Origin: Candidatus Omnitrophota bacterium | Lineage (GTDB): Bacteria > Ratteibacteria > UBA8468 > B48-G9 > JAFGKM01 | Direction of reading: 5' to 3' | DNA: 64,000 nt | Assembly (NCBI GenBank): GCA_016928555.1 | Contig: JAFGKM010000047.1 | Location: 462 to 64,461, forward strand | Shown here: positions 4,401 to 62,904 of the stretch, piece by piece | How the letters are laid out: the number at the start of each line of letters is the position of its first letter | Numbering within the stretch: the first letter of the stretch is position 1 | Position numbers and translations under genes: made by a program | Notes under the pieces: model-generated | Seen by the model: only the letters and a program-made list of their open reading frames with translations | What the model was told of the DNA's origin: nothing | Databases searched by the model: none

Positions 4401-6752
4401 TTAAAATTTTAAATCTTCCCAATCACTCCAATCGTTTCTCTCGCACTTAGCCCAGTTATATTTCTCTTTCTGGTTTATTTTCCATCTGCCGTTCTTTTCC
4501 AACACGATGCCGCCGAAAAAGTTCTTGCCTTGGTTGTTTTGCTCTTTAATATATTCTTGTAACTTTTCATTTTTCGCTTTCGTATATGTTTTGCCGTCAC
4601 GGTCCCCTGCTTCCTTCACCTCAAACACTCCTATCCGGCCGTCCGTTAATTGAACGAGATAATCGGGATAGAATGTATGTATAACTCCCTCCGGATATTC
4701 GTATTTAATTCCGAAATAATCTTTCTTGTTTTCGCCGTTTTTCCACCACCAGACAATTTTTCCGAAGTTTTCATTCAGAAATTTCTCAAACTGCTTTTCA
4801 GGAGTATACCTATCCACATTCAAATAGCATGGGTCATATACGTATTTCTTGCTATCAATTTTTTCATCAGCGTGTTTGTTATAAAAACTCTTCGGTGCAA
4901 TTTCGAATTCATACCATTGTTCGCTCTCTTCTATTTTTTTCTTGATTTCCTGTCCACGGATTGTTTTGTATTTTTCAATGGCATCCGCCAGAACCCTCTC
5001 AAACTGTCTTCTGTTTCCGTTATGTAAAAAAATCATCTGTACGAGAATAGCCTCTTCCGGCCAATCCTTTGCACCGAGATATTTCCTGAACCAGGAATAA
5101 ATTGCGGTCTTTACTTTCGGCACCGATCTTTTGATATTTTTGAACGAACCGAGATTGTTTTTGATGACCTGTTCAAATAGGGCCTGCAGGTCATTTCCCG
5201 CAATGGTCAGACGAGCAAAAGCATCGGCATCAATCTTACCCTCAATTTCATCAAAAACCTTTGCGTCAATCTTCGCATCAGTAATAATATCCTGTTGATA
5301 TTCCTTGATGTCAAGAATCATACCCGTCTGTTCCAGTTTCTCGATATTTTGACTGGGGAAAATATGATCGCCTTTCAGGCCGAAGTACTTACAGGATACT
5401 TCTTCGAATACCGGCGTAAAACTTGACGTAATATCGCCATAATCGGCACGTGACTTATAATAGGAAATAATGTTTGTCGGTTTGTATGCCGCAACGCGCT
5501 TGGCCGGTAGATGCTTAATTATGTTCGGATTGTATTCTTCTTTTTTAACAATAATGCTTTGAACATTCGTGTAAATATAGCCGATATTAAGGGGTTCGCT
5601 GGCATAATGCTTCTGTTCCGGCATTCTCAAAATACGCCCGACCGTCTGAATTTCAAAAGTTTCACTGTGAGACTCCCGGAATTTTACCAAAATATGGGCA
5701 CGCGGGCAGTCCCATCCGGTATCAATAGCCTGTTTGAAGATAAGAAATTCAATTTCATTATCCAAATCCTTGACCCATTCTTTCTTGGGACCCAAAGCGG
5801 CTGATTTTTCATCTGCTGTCCAAATTGCAAGTTTACGATTTTTCTCCGTTATGCCTTTGCGCGTCAAGAATTCTTTAACTGCTTTTATTTTATCCTCTCC
5901 CGCTTCCGCGGTCGGTATCTGAACAAGGGTAAGAGGATTTACAATAGATTTCTCGGCCTCAAAAAGTTTTTTCAGTTCTTTGCGCTTCTGATATGCCGCT
6001 TCCATGACTATTTCTTGGGAGTCAGTTTCGTTATTGCCGATTTCGTCTATTTTTTCGTTAATAATTAATTCTTTTTTAATCATCCCACTATTTATAACTT
6101 CTGCTGGTTCAATAAAAATAAATCCTGCCATACCTCGAGCCATATCACGCGGGTCAGGTTGAATCTTTGGCGTCGCACTCATCTCTAAAATAACGTCTGC
6201 ATTTATTTCCTCGCGCAGTTCGTTTGTACGTTCAGCTGTTGCTCCAATATGACTTTCGTCTATGATTAAAATGATTTTCCGTTGTTCTTTTGTTTTTACC
6301 AGAACATCGCGAAAATTCTTTCCATCACCGTCTTTCATCAAAACATTTTTCCAATCTCCGGTCCGACGATCCTTGCTTCGCAATTTTTCCCAATTTGCTA
6401 CCGCTATCTCGTTTTTTACAATCCGTTCGCGTCCGCCGGTAAATTCTTCTTCAACAAGCGATACTCTTGGCGCTCCTCCGAAAATTTCCTCCAGACAACG
6501 TTTACTCTGTAAATGTAAATCACCCTTACCTATACTTACCCATATGAAGCATAAATTTTCATAAACCAATTCTTTTATAATCTCTTCAATAAATTTTGCG
6601 GTCATTATAGTTTTTCCGCTACCGGTAGGGGCCTGAAAAACACATACTTTTTTCTGCCCTTCTTTTTCAAGCAGACCTTTTACAGTACTGACAAGTTCTT
6701 CAACGGCTTTTTCCTGATAGGGTTTCAGTTCAATATTCATAAATTTGCTCAT
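4401..6752 (-). CDS. res: Type III restriction enzyme Res subunit (SF2 helicase plus C-terminal PD-(D/E)xK nuclease)
   Basis: Motif I QAPTGSGKT, motif II LIIDESH (DEAH). C-terminal FYPDYLVQL...GVFEVKEAGD nuclease-like motif. Start overlaps mod stop by 23 nt (operon). Confidence 0.8.
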   Translation of the reverse strand: MSKFMNIELKPYQEKAVEELVSTVKGLLEKEGQKKVCVFQAPTGSGKTIMTAKFIEEIIKELVYENLCFIWVSIGKGDLHLQSKRCLEEIFGGAPRVSLVEEEFTGGRERIVKNEIAVANWEKLRSKDRRTGDWKNVLMKDGDGKNFRDVLVKTKEQRKIILIIDESHIGATAERTNELREEINADVILEMSATPKIQPDPRDMARGMAGFIFIEPAEVINSGMIKKELIINEKIDEIGNNETDSQEIVMEAAYQKRKELKKLFEAEKSIVNPLTLVQIPTAEAGEDKIKAVKEFLTRKGITEKNRKLAIWTADEKSAALGPKKEWVKDLDNEIEFLIFKQAIDTGWDCPRAHILVKFRESHSETFEIQTVGRILRMPEQKHYASEPLNIGYIYTNVQSIIVKKEEYNPNIIKHLPAKRVAAYKPTNIISYYKSRADYGDITSSFTPVFEEVSCKYFGLKGDHIFPSQNIEKLEQTGMILDIKEYQQDIITDAKIDAKVFDEIEGKIDADAFARLTIAGNDLQALFEQVIKNNLGSFKNIKRSVPKVKTAIYSWFRKYLGAKDWPEEAILVQMIFLHNGNRRQFERVLADAIEKYKTIRGQEIKKKIEESEQWYEFEIAPKSFYNKHADEKIDSKKYVYDPCYLNVDRYTPEKQFEKFLNENFGKIVWWWKNGENKKDYFGIKYEYPEGVIHTFYPDYLVQLTDGRIGVFEVKEAGDRDGKTYTKAKNEKLQEYIKEQNNQGKNFFGGIVLEKNGRWKINQKEKYNWAKCERNDWSDWEDLKF

Positions 6753-18630: not shown

Positions 18631-19446
18631 TTACTTAATCCCCTTAAGAATCTTTTGAAGGAAAGGAATGTCCTCTTTCAACTTGGTTTCGGACTCTCTT
18701 CCGTCAAGCGCTTCCAGAGACAGGTATCCTTTGTAGCCGATGCCGTCAAGCTGTTTTATTATCTCTTCCCAGTTCAAGTCTCCTTTTTCAAGAGTCCCGA
18801 ACTCCATGGGATATTTTCTGCCCGCAGGCACGCTTCCACCTTCCTGTACATAACGGGCTGATTTGACATGCACGTGGTTTATGTGCCCGCCCATAACGCT
18901 TAAGGCATACCCGGTCTTTGTGAACCCTTCAAACAGGCTGTTGCCCGGGTCGTATATAATGCCTATCCTCTCGGGGGGGAATTTAGCGACCATTTGCAGG
19001 CAGGCGTTGGGCGTACAGCATATCATGTTATGGTGTTGTTCAATGTTCAATTGAACGTCAAATTCCTCCGTCGCCGGCAAAACCTCTTTCTCCAGCCACC
19101 TTATCTGCCTTTCCATAAGCTCTGCGACAGAACTCTCTCCCGGGAAGGGATAGCTGTGACAGCGCACTTTCCCGGTATTCAATATCTTGGCTACATTGAA
19201 GATTTTTGCTATCTCGTCCCTTGTTTCATTGTACTTGAAATAGGGCGCTATGCCGGCCGTTTCCAACTGTGAGTCTTTCATTATTTTCGCAACATCCTCC
19301 GCTGACTTGGGAAGATTATTCACGTCTATATGCCCTTTTTCCCTGCACCACCACTCCACCCCGCCGCATCCGTATTTCTCGGCAAGTTTTATTACTTCCG
19401 CAGGGTTTTTATCCGCGCAGGACAGAGAATACACAGATATCTTCAT
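18631..19446 (-). CDS. sugar phosphate isomerase/epimerase (xylose isomerase-like TIM barrel)
   Basis: 271 aa. Typical AP-endonuclease-2 / TIM barrel family spacing of E/H/D metal-ligand residues. Confidence 0.6.
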   Translation of the reverse strand: MKISVYSLSCADKNPAEVIKLAEKYGCGGVEWWCREKGHIDVNNLPKSAEDVAKIMKDSQLETAGIAPYFKYNETRDEIAKIFNVAKILNTGKVRCHSYPFPGESSVAELMERQIRWLEKEVLPATEEFDVQLNIEQHHNMICCTPNACLQMVAKFPPERIGIIYDPGNSLFEGFTKTGYALSVMGGHINHVHVKSARYVQEGGSVPAGRKYPMEFGTLEKGDLNWEEIIKQLDGIGYKGYLSLEALDGRESETKLKEDIPFLQKILKGIK

Positions 19447-28786: not shown

Positions 28787-29118
28787 CTCCGGCGGTAGGA
28801 TTCGAACCTACAACCTTGCGGTTACAAGTACCCCCGAATTACTTCAGGGCTTGGACTATCTCTTCATCCTTTCCGAATTTTTTGGATTGGGATGTCGGGC
28901 GCTTCCCCGTTACCTGGAAAACAGGTACCGGGTACTCCATTTCTGGATAGTCTCTGCACCTTCCATTTTTTTGAAACAAATGGCTTGGCTCAGGATTGTC
29001 CGCCAGCTTTTCTTTTGTCTGATGGATTTCCCTGAATTCACCCGATTTTTCAACCACGATTTCTCGTGGAAGCTGCAACTGCTCACAGCCGCTTGCTCCA
29101 CCGTTGAGCTACGCCGGA
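28787..29118 (-). tRNA. tRNA-Asn(GUU) gene interrupted by a 260-nt group I intron between anticodon positions 35 and 36; exons 29118..29085 and 28824..28787
   Basis: 5' exon TCCGGCGTAGCTCAACGGTGGAGCAAGCGGCTGT and 3' exon TAACCGCAAGGTTGTAGGTTCGAATCCTACCGCCGGAG. Spliced product is a 72-nt cloverleaf with U1-A72, G73 and anticodon loop CUGUUAA as in E. coli tRNA-Asn. CCA is not encoded. Confidence 0.75.
28825..29084 (-). ncRNA. group I intron (IC3-like, tRNA-Leu(UAA)/tRNA-Ile intron family core), no ORF
   Basis: Intron RNA GAGCAGUUGCAGCUUCCACGAGAAAUCGUGG...CAGGGAAAUCCAUCAGACAAAAG...GACAAUCCUGAGCCAAGCCA...GGAAGGUGCAGAGACUAUCC...GAAGAGAUAGUCCAAGCCC...GUACUUG. It carries P7 halves GACUA and UAGUC, a P1 pairing GGCUGU with GCAGCU (U.G at 5' splice site), a P2 hairpin CCACGA-GAAA-UCGUGG, and a terminal G. 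Confidence 0.75.
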
Positions 29119-37436: not shown

Positions 37437-39578
37437 ATGGAAAAACATGTTTTCAGCAATTACGGGGGAAGCTACCAGCTTGATATAAAAACTCCCGGAG
37501 ACCTTGCAAAAATTCTTGACATGGACGAGGCGTTATGGGCGGCTGCAAGCATACCCCTAAACATACTCAACATCGACAGGAAATTTCTCGAATATCTTGA
37601 TTCCGATAAAAACGGACGCATAAGAACGGATGAAATAAAATCCGCAATAAGCTGGCTTTTATGCGTTTTAAAGGATTACTCCCATATTTCGGGCGCAAGC
37701 GATGCACTGTCCATAGAAAGCATAAACGGGGATATTCCCGAAGGTAAAATACTCGTAAGGACCGCAAAAAGAATACTCTCAAACCTCAAAGCTTCGGATA
37801 ATTCCGATAAAATAACTCTTTCACAGGTAAGAAACCTGCAGGGCATAATGGCAAGTTCGGCAACCAACGGGGACGGCGTCATTACGCCTGACGATACGTC
37901 CGAGGAGGAAATTTCCGCTCTTATAAAATTGATTATTGAAATTACCGGGGGGACAGCCGACGCAAGCGGAAAACAGGGGATTAGCATTCGGCAGGCTGAC
38001 GATTTTTTCACTAATGCCTCCCTTTTTCTCGAATGGTCCGCAAAAGGGAAAATCCCTCCCGGGCAGGAAAAAACAGAGATAATGGTATGGGGAGCCGGAA
38101 CACCCGCCGCCTATGAATGTCTTAAAAAAATAGAGCCCAAAATGAACGAGTTTTTCACCCAATGTGCGATAGCGGGGTTTGACGGAAGGGTTAAAAACTC
38201 TCTTAAGCTCACGCAGAAGGAACTTGAAGAAACGGACTTTACCGACACGAAACTTGTACTCAAACGGCTTGCCAAAGCTCCTCTTGCAGAAATAGACGAT
38301 GAAGGGACGTTGCGGCTCAACGGTTATATAAACCCTGTATTTGCGGACGCCGTTAATTCTTTACGCAGAAACGTCATTGAAAAAGCGCTCGGGAAGAATA
38401 CTGACAGACTGACACAGAAGCAATGGGAAACGGTTAAAAGCATATTTGCCGTGTACGGGACCTACCTTGACGGGAAAAAAGGAGGCGCGGTTGAAAGCGT
38501 TGGAGAAGAAATTTTGAGAAAATACACGGAAGGAGCCTTAAGGGATAAGATAAACGCCCTTATTGAAAAGGACATTGCCGCCGCAAAACAGATACAGCAC
38601 ATACAGGATGTTGAAAAACTTATACTTTTCCAGAAGTACATGCTGGAATTTGCAAACAACTCCGCCAGTTTTGCAAACGTATATAACCCCGGTATACGCT
38701 CCATATTCGAAGCGGGCACCCTTGTAATAGACGGCAGGAAAATAACGTTCACTCTTCTGGTTTCCGACAGGAACATACATAAAAATACCGCCAGGGACAG
38801 CAACGTCTACCTTATGTACCTTGACATAACCGGCAGGCACAACGGGGAATCAAAATTCGGGATAGCCGCGGCGGTAACGTCAGGGGATTCCGGAACCCTG
38901 CGGATAGGGAAAAGAGGGGTATTTTTCACACGGGACGGAAGGGAATGGGATGCGGAGGTAACCGATATAGTAATAAATCCGATAGGGCTTCTCGAATCCG
39001 TAAAAACGCCTTTTATCAAGCTTTCCGACGCGATAAGAAACCAGGTGGAAAAATTTGCGAAGACGAGGGAGGCAAGGATACAAACGACCCTTGTTGCCCC
39101 CTCTGGAGCAAGTATGGCGAGGGACCTGCTTGTGGGAGGCGGAGTCGCAATAGCGGCGCTCGGCTCTTCCTTTGCCTACGTTACAAAAGCGGTTTCTCAG
39201 GTAAAGCCGGTTCATTTTTTCATAACGATAGGACTTATACTTTCCATTGTTCTTTTGCCCAGCCTGGTTATGGGAATAATAAAACTAAGGCGGAGAAATC
39301 TGAGCATACTTTTTGAGGCTTCCGGGTGTGCGATAAACGTAAAGATGCGGCTTACGGTATGGCTGGGCAGGCTTTTCACCTATATCCCTCCATATCCCGC
39401 CGGTTCCCGTAAAAAGAAAATTGACATTGTGGCGCAGCTCGCCGCCGGTGCGGGGGGGAAAACAAGGGGACAAATTTTCAGGCGCATGGTAAAGATAGCC
39501 CTGGCTACAATAATAATCTGCATAATTGCCGCGGCTCTTCTCTTCCTCCGCCTGCGCTATTCTGGAAGGCTGTTTTGA
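37437..39578 (+). CDS. hypothetical large protein with N-terminal EF-hand-like Ca-binding loop and C-terminal TM helices
   Basis: [12 protein letters not shown] fits the 12-residue EF-hand loop. Track start 37401 is TTG; ATG 37437 is preceded by TTGACC-17nt-TAATAT (possibly leaderless). C-terminus has 3-4 hydrophobic helices. Confidence 0.45.
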
Positions 39579-58909: not shown

Positions 58910-59521
58910 ATGGATACGGCGAATCTCTTCAGAAAAATAGCCCTGCTTAAGAACGAACGCCTGCTTATAGACTGCCATATCATAAAAGGCAAGATAACAG
59001 ATATCTATAAAACGGGCGAAATAATTTACATACTCGAACCTGATTCGGTATTCCACACCTCCGGCATGGAACAGCACGGCACGCTCTTTTTCGACGCAAT
59101 GGGAGAAAGCTGTTTTGTGTTTGGCAAGATATTCTTTCAGCCGCCTGAAAAAATAGTGCTGATTCCCAAGGGACCGACGGGCATCAATAAAAGGGGCGAA
59201 ACACGCATCGAGACGCCTGCCCTTCCTGCGGAGATATCCGCCCATCACGGACTCATGAATTTCAAAACCAGAGGCACTATACTGAATCTATCCCTGAAAG
59301 GAGCGGCGGTGCTGACTCCCAAGGAGCTTAAAGGCTCAGTTGTTTATCTTCTTAAGACCTTTTTCCCTTTTCATGACCAATCTCTGCGGTTTACGTGCCC
59401 TTTTGTAAAACAGCACTGTACGGGCAAACAGAATATGTTTCTTGCCGGAATCTCATTTATAGATATGGAGGAGCCGTCAGGGAACAACCTTGTTAAATAT
59501 CTCAAGAGAAAAAACGCCTGA
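58910..59521 (+). CDS. PilZ domain protein (c-di-GMP binding)
   Basis: RGETR (RxxxR) followed 25 aa later by NLSLKG (D/NxSxxG). RBS AAAGGAG. Confidence 0.55.
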   Translation: MDTANLFRKIALLKNERLLIDCHIIKGKITDIYKTGEIIYILEPDSVFHTSGMEQHGTLFFDAMGESCFVFGKIFFQPPEKIVLIPKGPTGINKRGETRIETPALPAEISAHHGLMNFKTRGTILNLSLKGAAVLTPKELKGSVVYLLKTFFPFHDQSLRFTCPFVKQHCTGKQNMFLAGISFIDMEEPSGNNLVKYLKRKNA

Positions 59522-59585
59522 CTTTTTTCAAAACAGGATAAAAAAAGTTGATTTTATAATATCCAAAGGTTAAAATGTAAAAACT

Positions 59586-59963
59586 ATGGAAAAAAAACAC
59601 AAAAGGATTCTTGTGATTGACGATGAACCGGATTCGCTTATGACGCTTTCCATGGCTCTGAAATCACTGGGATATGTGGTTCTCGGAGCCCTGAACGGCA
59701 AAGAAGGGCTGAAGATTTTCAGAGAGGAAAAGCCCGACCTTGTGATACTTGATATTGTCATGCCTCTTATGGACGGATGGGAAGTGCTGAAAAGAATAAA
59801 AGCCGGGTTTAAGAGCAAACGCGTTCCAGTAATACTTATAACAGGCAAAAGCGAGGAAGAGAGCAAAGAGAAAAGTTACAGATACAAAGCCGATTTCTAT
59901 GTGACCAAGCCTTATGATTTAAAACACCTTATACTGACCATAGAGGATATGCTGTCGGAATAG
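59586..59963 (+). CDS. response regulator receiver domain protein (CheY-like, single domain)
   Basis: ILVIDDEPD, phospho-acceptor D in LVILDIVMP, conserved T and K (ILITGKS). Confidence 0.8.
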   Translation: MEKKHKRILVIDDEPDSLMTLSMALKSLGYVVLGALNGKEGLKIFREEKPDLVILDIVMPLMDGWEVLKRIKAGFKSKRVPVILITGKSEEESKEKSYRYKADFYVTKPYDLKHLILTIEDMLSE

Positions 59964-60081
59964 CACATACAAACTTTTACGCCAGTCATCTTTCGAATGT
60001 AAAACTGAAGTCTTATTGCATTTGATAACTGTGTTGATAAAATAATTCAATAAGGACCTGCACATTTTGTGCTAATGCTTG

Positions 60082-60099
60082 AAAAAAAAGGGGGGGGGG
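60082..60099 (+). repeat. homopolymeric tract A8 followed by G10 immediately preceding the ATG of the surface beta-helix protein
   Basis: gAAAAAAAAGGGGGGGGGG then ATG at 60100. The G-tract occupies the SD/spacer position. Confidence 0.9.
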
Positions 60100-62904
60100 A
60101 TGGACAAGTGCTTGAGAAAGAAAGGCATTGTTGCGGCATTTTTTGCTTTTCTGATGACGTTTTTTCTCGGAATTTGCCCGGCATCTTCAGCGGCAACATT
60201 GACGGTTGACGACAGCGGCGGAGCGGATTATACAACCATTCAGGACGCAATAGACAATGCGGGAGACAGCGATACAATTCTCGTATCTCCGGGGACATAC
60301 AACGAACAATTGATGATTGACGTGGACGAATTAACCATTCAGTCCACGGACGGGGCGGCTACCACCATTATAAATTGTCCCACGACAGTTGCTCCCGGCG
60401 GGATAACATTTGATACCAGCGGAACAACTTTTGACGGCTTTACGGTACAGGATTTCTCCGATACATCCAGCGAAAGCAAAATTTTCAGGGTGGGTTTGCC
60501 TCCGAATACCGCAGACCAGAACCTAATCAAGAACTGCGTCATACAGGGCAACCTAAATCAAGGAGGAGTGACATACCAGACCGACTACGGAATTCTCGTC
60601 TACGGTTCCGACAACCAGATAACAGACAATGAAATTTTTGACATGGGGTATATGGGCATTAACGTTGTCGGCACGCCGCACTCTGAAGCCGCAAACAATA
60701 TTATCAGCGGCAACAATATCCACAACATAGGCATCTATGCCATAGGAGTTGACAGGAGTCCAAACAACAATGTCATTATAACCGAAAACCAGATTTCCAA
60801 TCTCGTCGGCGGCGACTTATGGGGCTATTATTACGACCCCAACCTTTACTGCTACGCCATCGTTGCATGGGGCGCATCTGCCGAAGGCACGGTTATAAGC
60901 GGACATAATCTTTCGGGAATTCCCAACGGCATAGTTCTTTCATCTGCCTGCGGCGTTTATGTCCTGGAGAATACCATAACCGCTGACAACGTCGGATTAA
61001 GAATAAGCTGGACATCATGGGTGGGCGATATCCCCGACAACAATGTTATTGCTGGAAACACCATTACGGGATGCGGCACGGGAGTAGTTATCAGCCCCGG
61101 GGCGGGAAGCATCGGAACAGATAACTTCCTCGGTTTCAACAATATCTACGGCAACACGATTGGAGCGGATAACCTCGGAACGGAAATCTTCACAGCGGAA
61201 AAGAACTGGTGGGGAGATGCAAGCGGGCCTTATCATTCCGATACCAATCCCGGAGGACTGGGGAACGAGGTAAGCGACTACATTGACTATGAGCCATGGT
61301 TCGGAGCGGAGATAACCGACCTTATAATTATTGATTCTGAAAACCCTTATGAAGAAAACGGCGATGCAGGCATAGCCGTTGACGTCGCTTTTGACGGAGG
61401 TACCGAAGGCATTGTTATCGTAGCAGCCTTCGGTGAGAACAATCCAACGGAAGATGATGATTTTGAGGGAAATTTCTTTGATGTTTTCATACCCGAACTC
61501 AGCGATATAGAAGAAGTAATTGTGAGGTTGTATTACAACGAGCTTTCCGCAAAAACGGCTTACTGGCACAACGTGGATGAATGGATAGTCTGTTCTGACC
61601 AGGAAGTCGTTGAAGGAACCGTTGTACTTGAAGGGGTTATTTATGACGGCTATGTCGAGGTAACCATAAACGACGGGACGTCTCCTTCTCTGGCAGACTT
61701 AACGGGAACGATAATGGCTCTCAGGGATACCCCTCTATACGATGACGTATCCGGACAGAGCAAGTGTTTCATAGCAACTGCGGCTTTCGGCTCCCCTTTT
61801 GAACGCCACGTCCAGGTTCTCAGGGAATTCAGGGATAAGTATCTTTTGACCAACCCTGCCGGACAGGCCTTTGTCAGGTGGTACTACAGCCACAGTCCGA
61901 AGTATGCCGCAGTTATAGCGCAAAATCCTGTGCTGAAAACTGCGGTAAGAGTTGCGCTGATGCCGTTTTTCGCAGCCGCCTTCCTTGCAGTAAAGGGCTT
62001 CCTTCCGTATCTACTTCTTGGCGCAGGGCTCTTCCTGCTGTCTTTGATTGGAAGAGCAAGAAAAGCCGCATTGACAATACTTGCAGCAGGACTGCTTTTC
62101 GGTTTTTCAGCAGGTTCCTATGCCGCCGACGGAAACCACTTTGACGTCTCCCCTGGTGAAAACTACTCTGTGACGGTTCCGACAACCCATACAATAGGCC
62201 ACTTCAACTGGGAAATGGATATCTTCTACTCCTACGCAAACAAAGCGCTTGAGGCGGAACTGGCGGGAACAGAGATGGACCTTGTAAAAAACCAGCATTT
62301 GCTCCAGGCCACGTTGACCTTCGGAATCTGCAATTTACAGCAGATATCGCTCGTTGTACCTTATATTGCCGACCAGCTTTCCGAGGTGGGCGGCACAGGG
62401 AAAAGCGGGATGGGAGACCTTTCTCTCATTTACAAATTCCGGTTTCCGACGCAGAATGAAAACGGATTCAAAGTAGCCGTTGCGCCGTATCTTCAGCTTG
62501 ATACCGGTAAAGACGGTATCTACATGAATGCAGGCGACTACGCTGTGGGAATTCGCGGAATAGTGGATAAACGACTTAACGAAAATCTGCTCTGGACGGG
62601 AAATATAGGTTACGCCTACCAGCCAAAAGAAGAACTGGGAAACAACATTGAGATAGAACATACACTGCTTTTCGGCATGGGCATGGTTTTCAATATACCA
62701 AAAACCTGTTCTTACATTTCCGCTGAGCTTTTCGGCAGAAGCGAAGATATGTTTGATACGGAGAACACGCCTGTTGAAGGCATCATCTCATACGGATTCG
62801 CAAAGGAACATACAACCTTCACAATCGGCGCAGGTCTTGGAGTGGTGGACGGTTACGGAGCGCCTGACTGGCGGTTATTTACAGGATTGCGTTTCGGGAT
62901 ATAA
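60100..62904 (+). CDS. secreted/surface protein: signal peptide, right-handed parallel beta-helix repeats, CFIATAAFGS-containing segment, hydrophobic helices, C-terminal outer-membrane beta-barrel-like domain
   Basis: Signal peptide MDKCLRKKGIVAAFFAFLMTFFLGICPASSAA. Repeated NxxIxGN beta-helix rungs. CFIATAAFGSPFERHVQVLREFRDKYLL. C-terminal about 270 aa with alternating amphipathic strands ending LRFGI. Track start 60079 is TTG inside the homopolymer. Confidence 0.7.
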   Translation: MDKCLRKKGIVAAFFAFLMTFFLGICPASSAATLTVDDSGGADYTTIQDAIDNAGDSDTILVSPGTYNEQLMIDVDELTIQSTDGAATTIINCPTTVAPGGITFDTSGTTFDGFTVQDFSDTSSESKIFRVGLPPNTADQNLIKNCVIQGNLNQGGVTYQTDYGILVYGSDNQITDNEIFDMGYMGINVVGTPHSEAANNIISGNNIHNIGIYAIGVDRSPNNNVIITENQISNLVGGDLWGYYYDPNLYCYAIVAWGASAEGTVISGHNLSGIPNGIVLSSACGVYVLENTITADNVGLRISWTSWVGDIPDNNVIAGNTITGCGTGVVISPGAGSIGTDNFLGFNNIYGNTIGADNLGTEIFTAEKNWWGDASGPYHSDTNPGGLGNEVSDYIDYEPWFGAEITDLIIIDSENPYEENGDAGIAVDVAFDGGTEGIVIVAAFGENNPTEDDDFEGNFFDVFIPELSDIEEVIVRLYYNELSAKTAYWHNVDEWIVCSDQEVVEGTVVLEGVIYDGYVEVTINDGTSPSLADLTGTIMALRDTPLYDDVSGQSKCFIATAAFGSPFERHVQVLREFRDKYLLTNPAGQAFVRWYYSHSPKYAAVIAQNPVLKTAVRVALMPFFAAAFLAVKGFLPYLLLGAGLFLLSLIGRARKAALTILAAGLLFGFSAGSYAADGNHFDVSPGENYSVTVPTTHTIGHFNWEMDIFYSYANKALEAELAGTEMDLVKNQHLLQATLTFGICNLQQISLVVPYIADQLSEVGGTGKSGMGDLSLIYKFRFPTQNENGFKVAVAPYLQLDTGKDGIYMNAGDYAVGIRGIVDKRLNENLLWTGNIGYAYQPKEELGNNIEIEHTLLFGMGMVFNIPKTCSYISAELFGRSEDMFDTENTPVEGIISYGFAKEHTTFTIGAGLGVVDGYGAPDWRLFTGLRFGI

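Follow-up and report, generated by a model that had tools for sequence, protein, structure and literature searches.

Is a homopolymer tract that takes the place of a ribosome-binding site (RBS) a heritable control on the gene behind it, or just an odd RBS? The question is raised by the gene for a 934-amino-acid (aa) surface protein, P0001, in the window, by which we mean the whole 64-kb stretch of contig JAFGKM010000047.1 that was analysed. The sequence at the site is ...gcttgAAAAAAAAGGGGGGGGGGATGGACAAG (in a fuller reading, ...GCTTG-AAAAAAAA-GGGGGGGGGG-ATGGACAAG): eight A's pass into ten G's, and the last G directly adjoins the ATG at 60100-60102, with no base between. The original prediction of an A8-G10 tract abutting the start codon is confirmed by these coordinates (60082-60099) and by L001, a separately made Logan assembly of run SRR13394437, probably built from the same reads as the window, in which A8G10 is identical and there are no mismatches over the 4576 nucleotides (nt) in common. 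The tract is probably the RBS of this gene, and copying errors in it may tune expression.

Runs of A or T of this length are common here, the window having nine A8/T8 runs; G10 is its only G/C run longer than seven, the runners-up being two G7 (18973-18979 and 39452-39458) and one C7 (21604-21610). With the base frequencies of the window and independent, identically distributed (iid) positions, about 0.04 G/C runs of at least 10 are expected anywhere in 64 kb. The expectation for a sense-strand run touching a start codon is orders of magnitude lower, and arithmetic from the same frequencies gives a figure of order 1e-5 for a G/C run of at least 10 adjoining one of some 50 start codons.

The corresponding place in related genes was found through the protein. 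Searches returned the exact 934-aa product and four clusters of full-length orthologs, P0002 to P0005, at 58-65% identity. The first Met, encoded by ATG 60100, is invariant in an alignment with five full-length orthologs, the MDKCLRKKG of the window matching the MKDCLRKTG of P0003. This comparison of sequences shows the gene to start at ATG 60100, which leaves the tract untranslated and unable to shift the reading frame. The DNA of every ortholog locus was then compared at the leader: each has AGGAGG 6-8 nt ahead of its ATG, at the homologous position, and none of the loci examined has a homopolymer tract at the RBS. The leader reads aaAGGAGGaaaacagaATG in L002, L003, L004, L006, L016 and L030, with no difference among these six assemblies, which come from several samples, AGGAGGtgggaaaATG in L005 and AGGAGGcaggctATG in L007-L012. 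A palindrome in the presumed 5' untranslated region (UTR), TGCACATTTTGTGCT, allows the leaders to be set in register. Its 14-mer TGCACATTTTGTGC recurs unchanged, and equally far from the ATG, in the 65%-identity loci (the six with the invariant leader): from the end of the palindrome to the ATG is 27 nt in the window and 26 nt in L002, where the palindrome is at about 5961-5975. L005 has a related palindrome, TGTGCAAATAGCACA, upstream of 6001. Since this distance is conserved, the 18-nt A8G10 replaces a segment comprising Shine-Dalgarno sequence (SD) and spacer at preserved length; the tract thus takes the precise place expected of SD and spacer, as had been proposed. The palindrome itself may act as a small hairpin or an operator; it is no more frequent in the window than chance would give, and was rejected as a regulon motif. 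Secondary structure in the UTR that might hide the RBS was considered and rejected, the folding energy being unexceptional relative to shuffled sequences (z = -0.39), as it also is for the L002 leader.

Can such a tract serve as an SD? The heptamer AAGGGGG at the A/G junction pairs with the anti-SD ACCUCCUUA at -11.2 kcal/mol, through 7 base pairs including one G.U (duplexfold), and the AGGAGG sites of the orthologs pair with it at -10.2 to -11.6 kcal/mol. This anti-SD is the assumed canonical one, the 16S gene being outside the window; other genes of the window have GGAGG-type SDs 4-9 nt from their starts, which makes the assumption a fair one. Another gene, at 1331-1356 on the minus strand, apparently also has a G-run SD (ataaGGGGGtgtgctATG), which suggests that G5 can act as an SD in this organism. 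With pairing at the junction, the last five G's form the spacer and spacer length is the number of G's minus five; the duplex calculation gives the length of the A tract no effect on SD or spacing. The length of the G tract would therefore set the SD-AUG spacing.

The consequences of length change were estimated with a crude initiation model, which adds a spacing penalty to hybridisation and subtracts local mRNA folding, and whose output is indicative only. Taking G10 as 1.0, predicted relative initiation is 0.73 for G9, 0.16 for G8, 0.03 for G7 and 0.9-2 for G11-G16. A change of one G is thus predicted to give 0.7-0.9x, with strong loss only at G8 or below. A sharp translation switch does not emerge from these figures; if the tract slips, the model predicts graded control, felt only once at least two G's are lost, rather than one-step on/off control.

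It is plausible that the tract is a slippage-tuned RBS, and we see the chances for and against as evenly balanced. The 10-G run would be a hotspot of slipped-strand errors, from which lineages with shorter or longer spacers should arise. Expansion would have little effect, as pairing would slide along the G's to hold a good spacing, and contraction to G8 or fewer would bring a stepwise drop in translation of the surface protein. Read so, the tract is a candidate "volume control" through which translation could be set heritably and reversibly; it would be neither a frameshift switch nor an on/off switch. In contingency loci the standard hypermutable element is a G/C run of at least 7 (PMC4965091, PMC8355987, PMC1891110), and quantitative effects of tracts in the 5'UTR or SD context are known (PMC13317227, PMC11898584, PMC8322730, PMC12721329). 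The slippage-prone length first attributed to G10 stands, since it lies within the range of known hypermutable tracts (PMC4965091, PMC8355987). With respect to simple-sequence-repeat contingency loci, G10 exceeds the length threshold, G/C of about 7 or more, as applied to C. jejuni (PMC4965091), and its placement as SD and spacer of ATG 60100 is one that would alter expression, the predicted effect being graded. The tract is accordingly best called a plausible but unproven candidate member of the repeat-tract elements of 5'UTRs and RBSs, in an unstudied phylum.

Like the known non-coding G/C tracts of at least 7 beside gene starts, this one is expected to have a quantitative rather than an ON/OFF effect. 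It differs from them in that SD and spacer both come from the tract itself, the SD from its A/G junction and the spacer in its entirety, with the AUG adjoining, and in its host, an uncultured Omnitrophica metagenome-assembled genome (MAG) in which no variation has been observed. The M. tuberculosis espR leader (PMC11898584) also carries a 5'UTR poly-G, and its +1 variant alters translation efficiency; here the tract is the RBS and there is no evident UTR structure. The leader of H. pylori tlpB (PMC8322730) has a G-repeat providing translational control of a cell-envelope protein, but there a conserved C/U-rich small RNA (sRNA), RepG, is needed and the repeat is upstream of the RBS, whereas here no such RNA is known and the tract is the RBS. 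In H. influenzae hmw1A (PMC12721329) the expression of a large secreted adhesin is graded by the number of 5'UTR repeats, but these are heptamers in a long hairpin processed by RNase III, as opposed to a homopolymer with no hairpin.

Tracts of this sort typically occur at genes like this one, whose product is surface-exposed with a recombining, polymorphic passenger. P0002 and P0004 are 100% identical in leader DNA, in the first ~40 residues and in the whole C-terminal half, but only 44-75% identical in the beta-helix; there P0002 resembles P0005 (74-87%) and P0004 resembles P0003 (71-87%). The pattern is seen in alignment columns 80-480, at loci L002, L005, L006 and L007. As judged from this alignment, recombination has made a mosaic of the beta-helix passenger, as is typical of surface domains that are exposed and diversifying.

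Several observations weigh against a slippage-tuned RBS. No relative examined has the tract; it is missing also from three more distant beta-helix homologs, L027-L029, whose leaders are ordinary. With no ortholog or paralog examined carrying an RBS tract, there is no sign of recurrent selection. The original prediction had held that absence from orthologs, together with a single fixed length in all reads, would point to a neutral or artefactual tract, and the absence is what we find. No length variation has been seen in the one sample available, both assemblies, probably of the same reads, having G10. Exact-protein look-ups for the same species elsewhere (the 934-aa and 941-aa products and the upstream response regulator) returned only a single Logan contig; flank patterns with a variable gap had no match in metagenome_contigs or genome_contigs; and a looser pattern anchored on the palindrome found just one further L002-type locus, with a normal SD. 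That a one-G change has almost no predicted effect weakens the selective value of the tract as a switch. Chance alone would, on the iid frequencies, place about one G/C run of at least 10 in a genome of a few Mb, and purine richness is in any case normal for SD regions. Finally, the promoter and transcription start are only guesses from the sequence. The hexamers TTGCAT and TAAAAT proposed as a promoter are present, but their spacer is 16 nt, not 17, and they match the consensus at only 8 of 12 positions; a consensus scan did not list them. The -10 region aligns with the leader of the L002 ortholog. The window scan predicts no terminator between the upstream response-regulator gene and the surface-protein gene, so transcription might also read through from upstream. 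Phase variation through promoter spacing does not apply, the tract adjoining the start codon and the candidate hexamers lying upstream at 60016-60043.

The same absence from orthologs favours a fixed, unusual but working RBS, in which a purine-rich SD (AAAGGAGGAAAA-like, as in L002) has drifted and slipped to A8G10 without any switching; expression would be constitutive or ordinarily regulated, and length changes rare, deleterious or neutral. The invariant ortholog leader, the preserved distance from palindrome to ATG, the single length in both assemblies, the near-neutrality predicted for a one-G change and the chance frequency of such runs all fit this account. To our knowledge, however, G/C runs this long are hypermutable in every bacterium measured. 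The published cases (PMC4965091, PMC8355987, PMC1891110) make strict fixity unlikely, and a site adjoining the start of a surface protein with a polymorphic passenger has the usual profile of a contingency locus. We regard a fixed RBS as a real possibility, while leaning against it.

Instead of or besides slippage of the DNA, the tract might act at the level of RNA, either as the target of a C/U-rich trans-acting sRNA, as in the RepG-tlpB case, or through slippage of RNA polymerase on A8 or G10. Its position in the leader beside the AUG would suit such action; an sRNA acting on a variable G-repeat in a 5'UTR is a precedent (PMC8322730), and transcriptional slippage at long homopolymers is the subject of a review (PMC5009743). 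We think this improbable: the 64-kb window holds no candidate sRNA, Rfam at the gathering threshold finding only one tRNA and a group I intron in it, and the UTR has no special structure.

A frameshift ON/OFF switch, with translation from TTG 60079 reading the tract as KKKGGG and any one-base change throwing the product out of frame, had been left open by the original prediction of a 941-aa protein. The TTG is in frame and the path to ATG 60100 free of stops, but no SD precedes it, every ortholog begins at the Met that aligns with ATG 60100 and has an SD of its own shortly before it, and exact-protein look-up of public records found no 941-aa product, the public gene call being 934 aa, the actual length. 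Even were the TTG used, the ATG with its junction SD would initiate independently. The invariant Met, the TTG without SD and the missing 941-aa record together lead us to reject the frameshift option as very improbable and the TTG as an artefact of the open-reading-frame (ORF) finder; the tract does not lie inside the reading frame, as intragenic phase variation of this type requires. GTG 60568, the pick that maximises the SD, was likewise set aside in favour of the ortholog alignment.

That the tract is an artefact of sequencing or assembly, such as a two-colour poly-G error or a chimeric join, is hardly credible: poly-G artefacts exist on some sequencing platforms and the two assemblies probably share one read set, but two assemblers agree without mismatch, both flanks are homologous to the ortholog flanks at the correct spacing, and 10 G's are shorter than assembly k-mers, so that reads must span both flanks, and we take the sequence as real.

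Table 1. Features of the surface-protein gene and its leader; coordinates are those of the window.
Feature	Position	Strand	Basis or remark
Putative sigma-70-like promoter	60016-60043	+	TTGCAT 60016-60021, 16-nt spacer, TAAAAT 60038-60043; weak match
Palindrome TGCACATTTTGTGCT	60059-60073	+	presumed 5'UTR; candidate hairpin or operator
TTG, start given by ORF finder, rejected	60079-60081	+	no upstream purine-rich SD; ortholog N-termini begin at ATG 60100
A8 tract	60082-60089	+	last two A's part of SD-equivalent
SD-equivalent AAGGGGG at A/G junction	60088-60094	+	duplexfold against assumed anti-SD
G10 tract	60090-60099	+	first five G's in SD-equivalent, last five spacer to AUG
Gene for 934-aa surface protein (P0001)	60100-62904	+	exact protein on public record
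Signal peptide, aa 1-31	60100-60192	+	MDKCLRKKG, hydrophobic core, ASSA; read from sequence and ortholog alignment
Right-handed parallel beta-helix, aa ~33-330	60196-61089	+	Pfam NosD, E = 9e-11
CFI-box-CTERM domain, aa 556-623	61765-61968	+	NCBIfam NF041770, E = 1.2e-28, 98.7 bits against cutoff 40
Internal signal-peptide-like segment, aa ~654-675	62059-62124	+	RKAALTILAAGLLFGFSAGSYA then AD; conserved in orthologs
FapF/COG4313-type outer-membrane beta-barrel, aa 676-934	62125-62901	+	AlphaFold2 and Foldseek

What would the tract control? The description of the product as a secreted beta-helix protein with an outer-membrane barrel is borne out by Pfam, NCBIfam, AlphaFold2 (AF2) and Foldseek. 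A full-length AF2 model made with 5 sequences was confident for the beta-helix alone, the barrel needing a deeper alignment. The model of the beta-helix is all-beta, with pLDDT mostly 60-90 in blocks of 10 residues and short dips below 50; the part between it and the CFI-box is poorly modelled. The CFI-box match exceeds the curated cutoff of its family. The domain does not stand at the C-terminus of the protein, however: about 310 residues follow, in which a basic patch leads to a signal-peptide-like segment ending SYA/AD and then to the barrel. This segment aligns with the N-terminal signal peptides of the stand-alone barrels P0064 and P0066. The product may therefore be cut by signal peptidase, giving a beta-helix protein with its anchor and a barrel that is free, and only on cleavage at this internal site would the CFI-box become C-terminal.

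The barrel, modelled from an 18-sequence alignment (pLDDT 86.6, pTM 0.84), has 13 strand segments by DSSP. Its best Foldseek matches, and the closest fold to it, are FapF (5o68) and the COG4313 channel (4rl8), with TM 0.66-0.71 and E down to 7e-12; both solved structures are 12-stranded. Sequence comparison gives no match in a search of the barrel against PDB, 15 bits (E = 0.025) to PF13557, below its cutoff of 22, and 28 bits (E = 5e-7) to the TraB N-terminal region (NF033763), far below the family cutoff of 700. It is not a type Va autotransporter beta-domain: no Pfam autotransporter family matches, and the autotransporter barrels of BrkA, NalP and Hbp reach TM of only 0.43-0.51, well behind FapF and COG4313. 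The likeness to autotransporter architecture is analogous, not homologous. An exhaustive search gave 858 relatives of the barrel, some stand-alone proteins of 270-290 aa and others C-terminal in large proteins. In all 10 of the other large fusions checked (proteins among P0062-P0077) a CFI-box stands immediately ahead of the barrel; the protein is thus a conserved fusion, and this arrangement of sequences suggests that CFI-box proteins are functionally paired with the barrel. A parallel can be drawn with TraA/TraB, the outer-membrane exchange pair of Myxococcus, in which a surface protein bearing a Cys-containing sorting tag at its C-terminus and a polymorphic passenger is paired with a TraB-N-like barrel. 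Here, by contrast, one reading frame contains both parts, joined through the internal signal-peptide-like segment; a CFI-box takes the place of MYXO-CTERM as tag, and the OmpA domain is absent. A literature search found no papers on the CFI-box-CTERM domain, nor on phase variation in Omnitrophota.

The proposal in its most complete form is that the A/G junction as SD and a slippage-adjustable G spacer make up a self-contained mutable RBS, giving heritable, reversible and graded control of a CFI-box-anchored beta-helix/FapF/TraB-like fusion; we advance it tentatively, and it is rather doubtful that it holds in every part. If true, this would be the first contingency locus described in the phylum, a clean case of spacing-based translational phase variation and a tidy natural example of translation tuned by SD-AUG spacing. 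Control over a surface protein whose exposed domain is shuffled by recombination would hint at pressure from phages, predators or partners. If the length varies, contingency-locus logic, best known from host-adapted pathogens, would extend to uncultured environmental nanobacteria; if it does not, we are left with an unusual ribosome-binding site and no more. The protein architecture, with CFI-box, signal-peptide-like segment and FapF/TraB-like barrel in frame, may prove the more useful lead.

Homopolymer runs also occur in and near the orthologs. An A9 run inside the coding region of P0005 (L007 8427-8435; also L008-L012 and L015) has the same length in seven of seven assemblies, in a comparison made through exact-protein look-up and so biased to in-frame copies. 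A C9 run (G9 on the gene strand; L007 12850-12858, L008 8093-8101) has the same length in two samples; it lies some 4 kb away from the Ratteibacteria ortholog, in a short gap between two hypothetical genes beside an N6/N4 DNA methyltransferase. The phylum labels of the MAGs that carry these related genes (L014, L015, L016, P0001) differ, including Omnitrophica, Hydrogenedentota, Ratteibacteria and "Pseudomonadota"; NCBI labels P0001 as from a Candidatus Omnitrophica MAG. L016 and L014 have identical leaders despite different phylum labels. The conflicting labels and the identical leader indicate mis-binning, mislabelling or horizontal transfer.

Immediately ahead of the surface-protein gene, and in its orientation, lie genes for a PilZ-domain protein (58910-59521) and then a CheY-like receiver (59586-59963), neighbours that may link the surface protein to cyclic di-GMP or adhesion signalling; the genes beside the orthologs differ from this pair. 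The receiver gene, a stand-alone response regulator, has an A8 run of its own at 59590-59597, in codons 2-4 (ATGGAAAAAAAACAT, MEKKHK), which may be due to chance given the number of such runs in the window, and an A7 run (59540-59546) lies just ahead of its promoter-like site. Elsewhere in the window, on the minus strand at 28832-29094, is a full-length group I intron (RF00028, 96.5 bits, E = 1e-23), within a stretch of about 1.5 kb that has no long ORFs and in which ARAGORN detects no tRNA.

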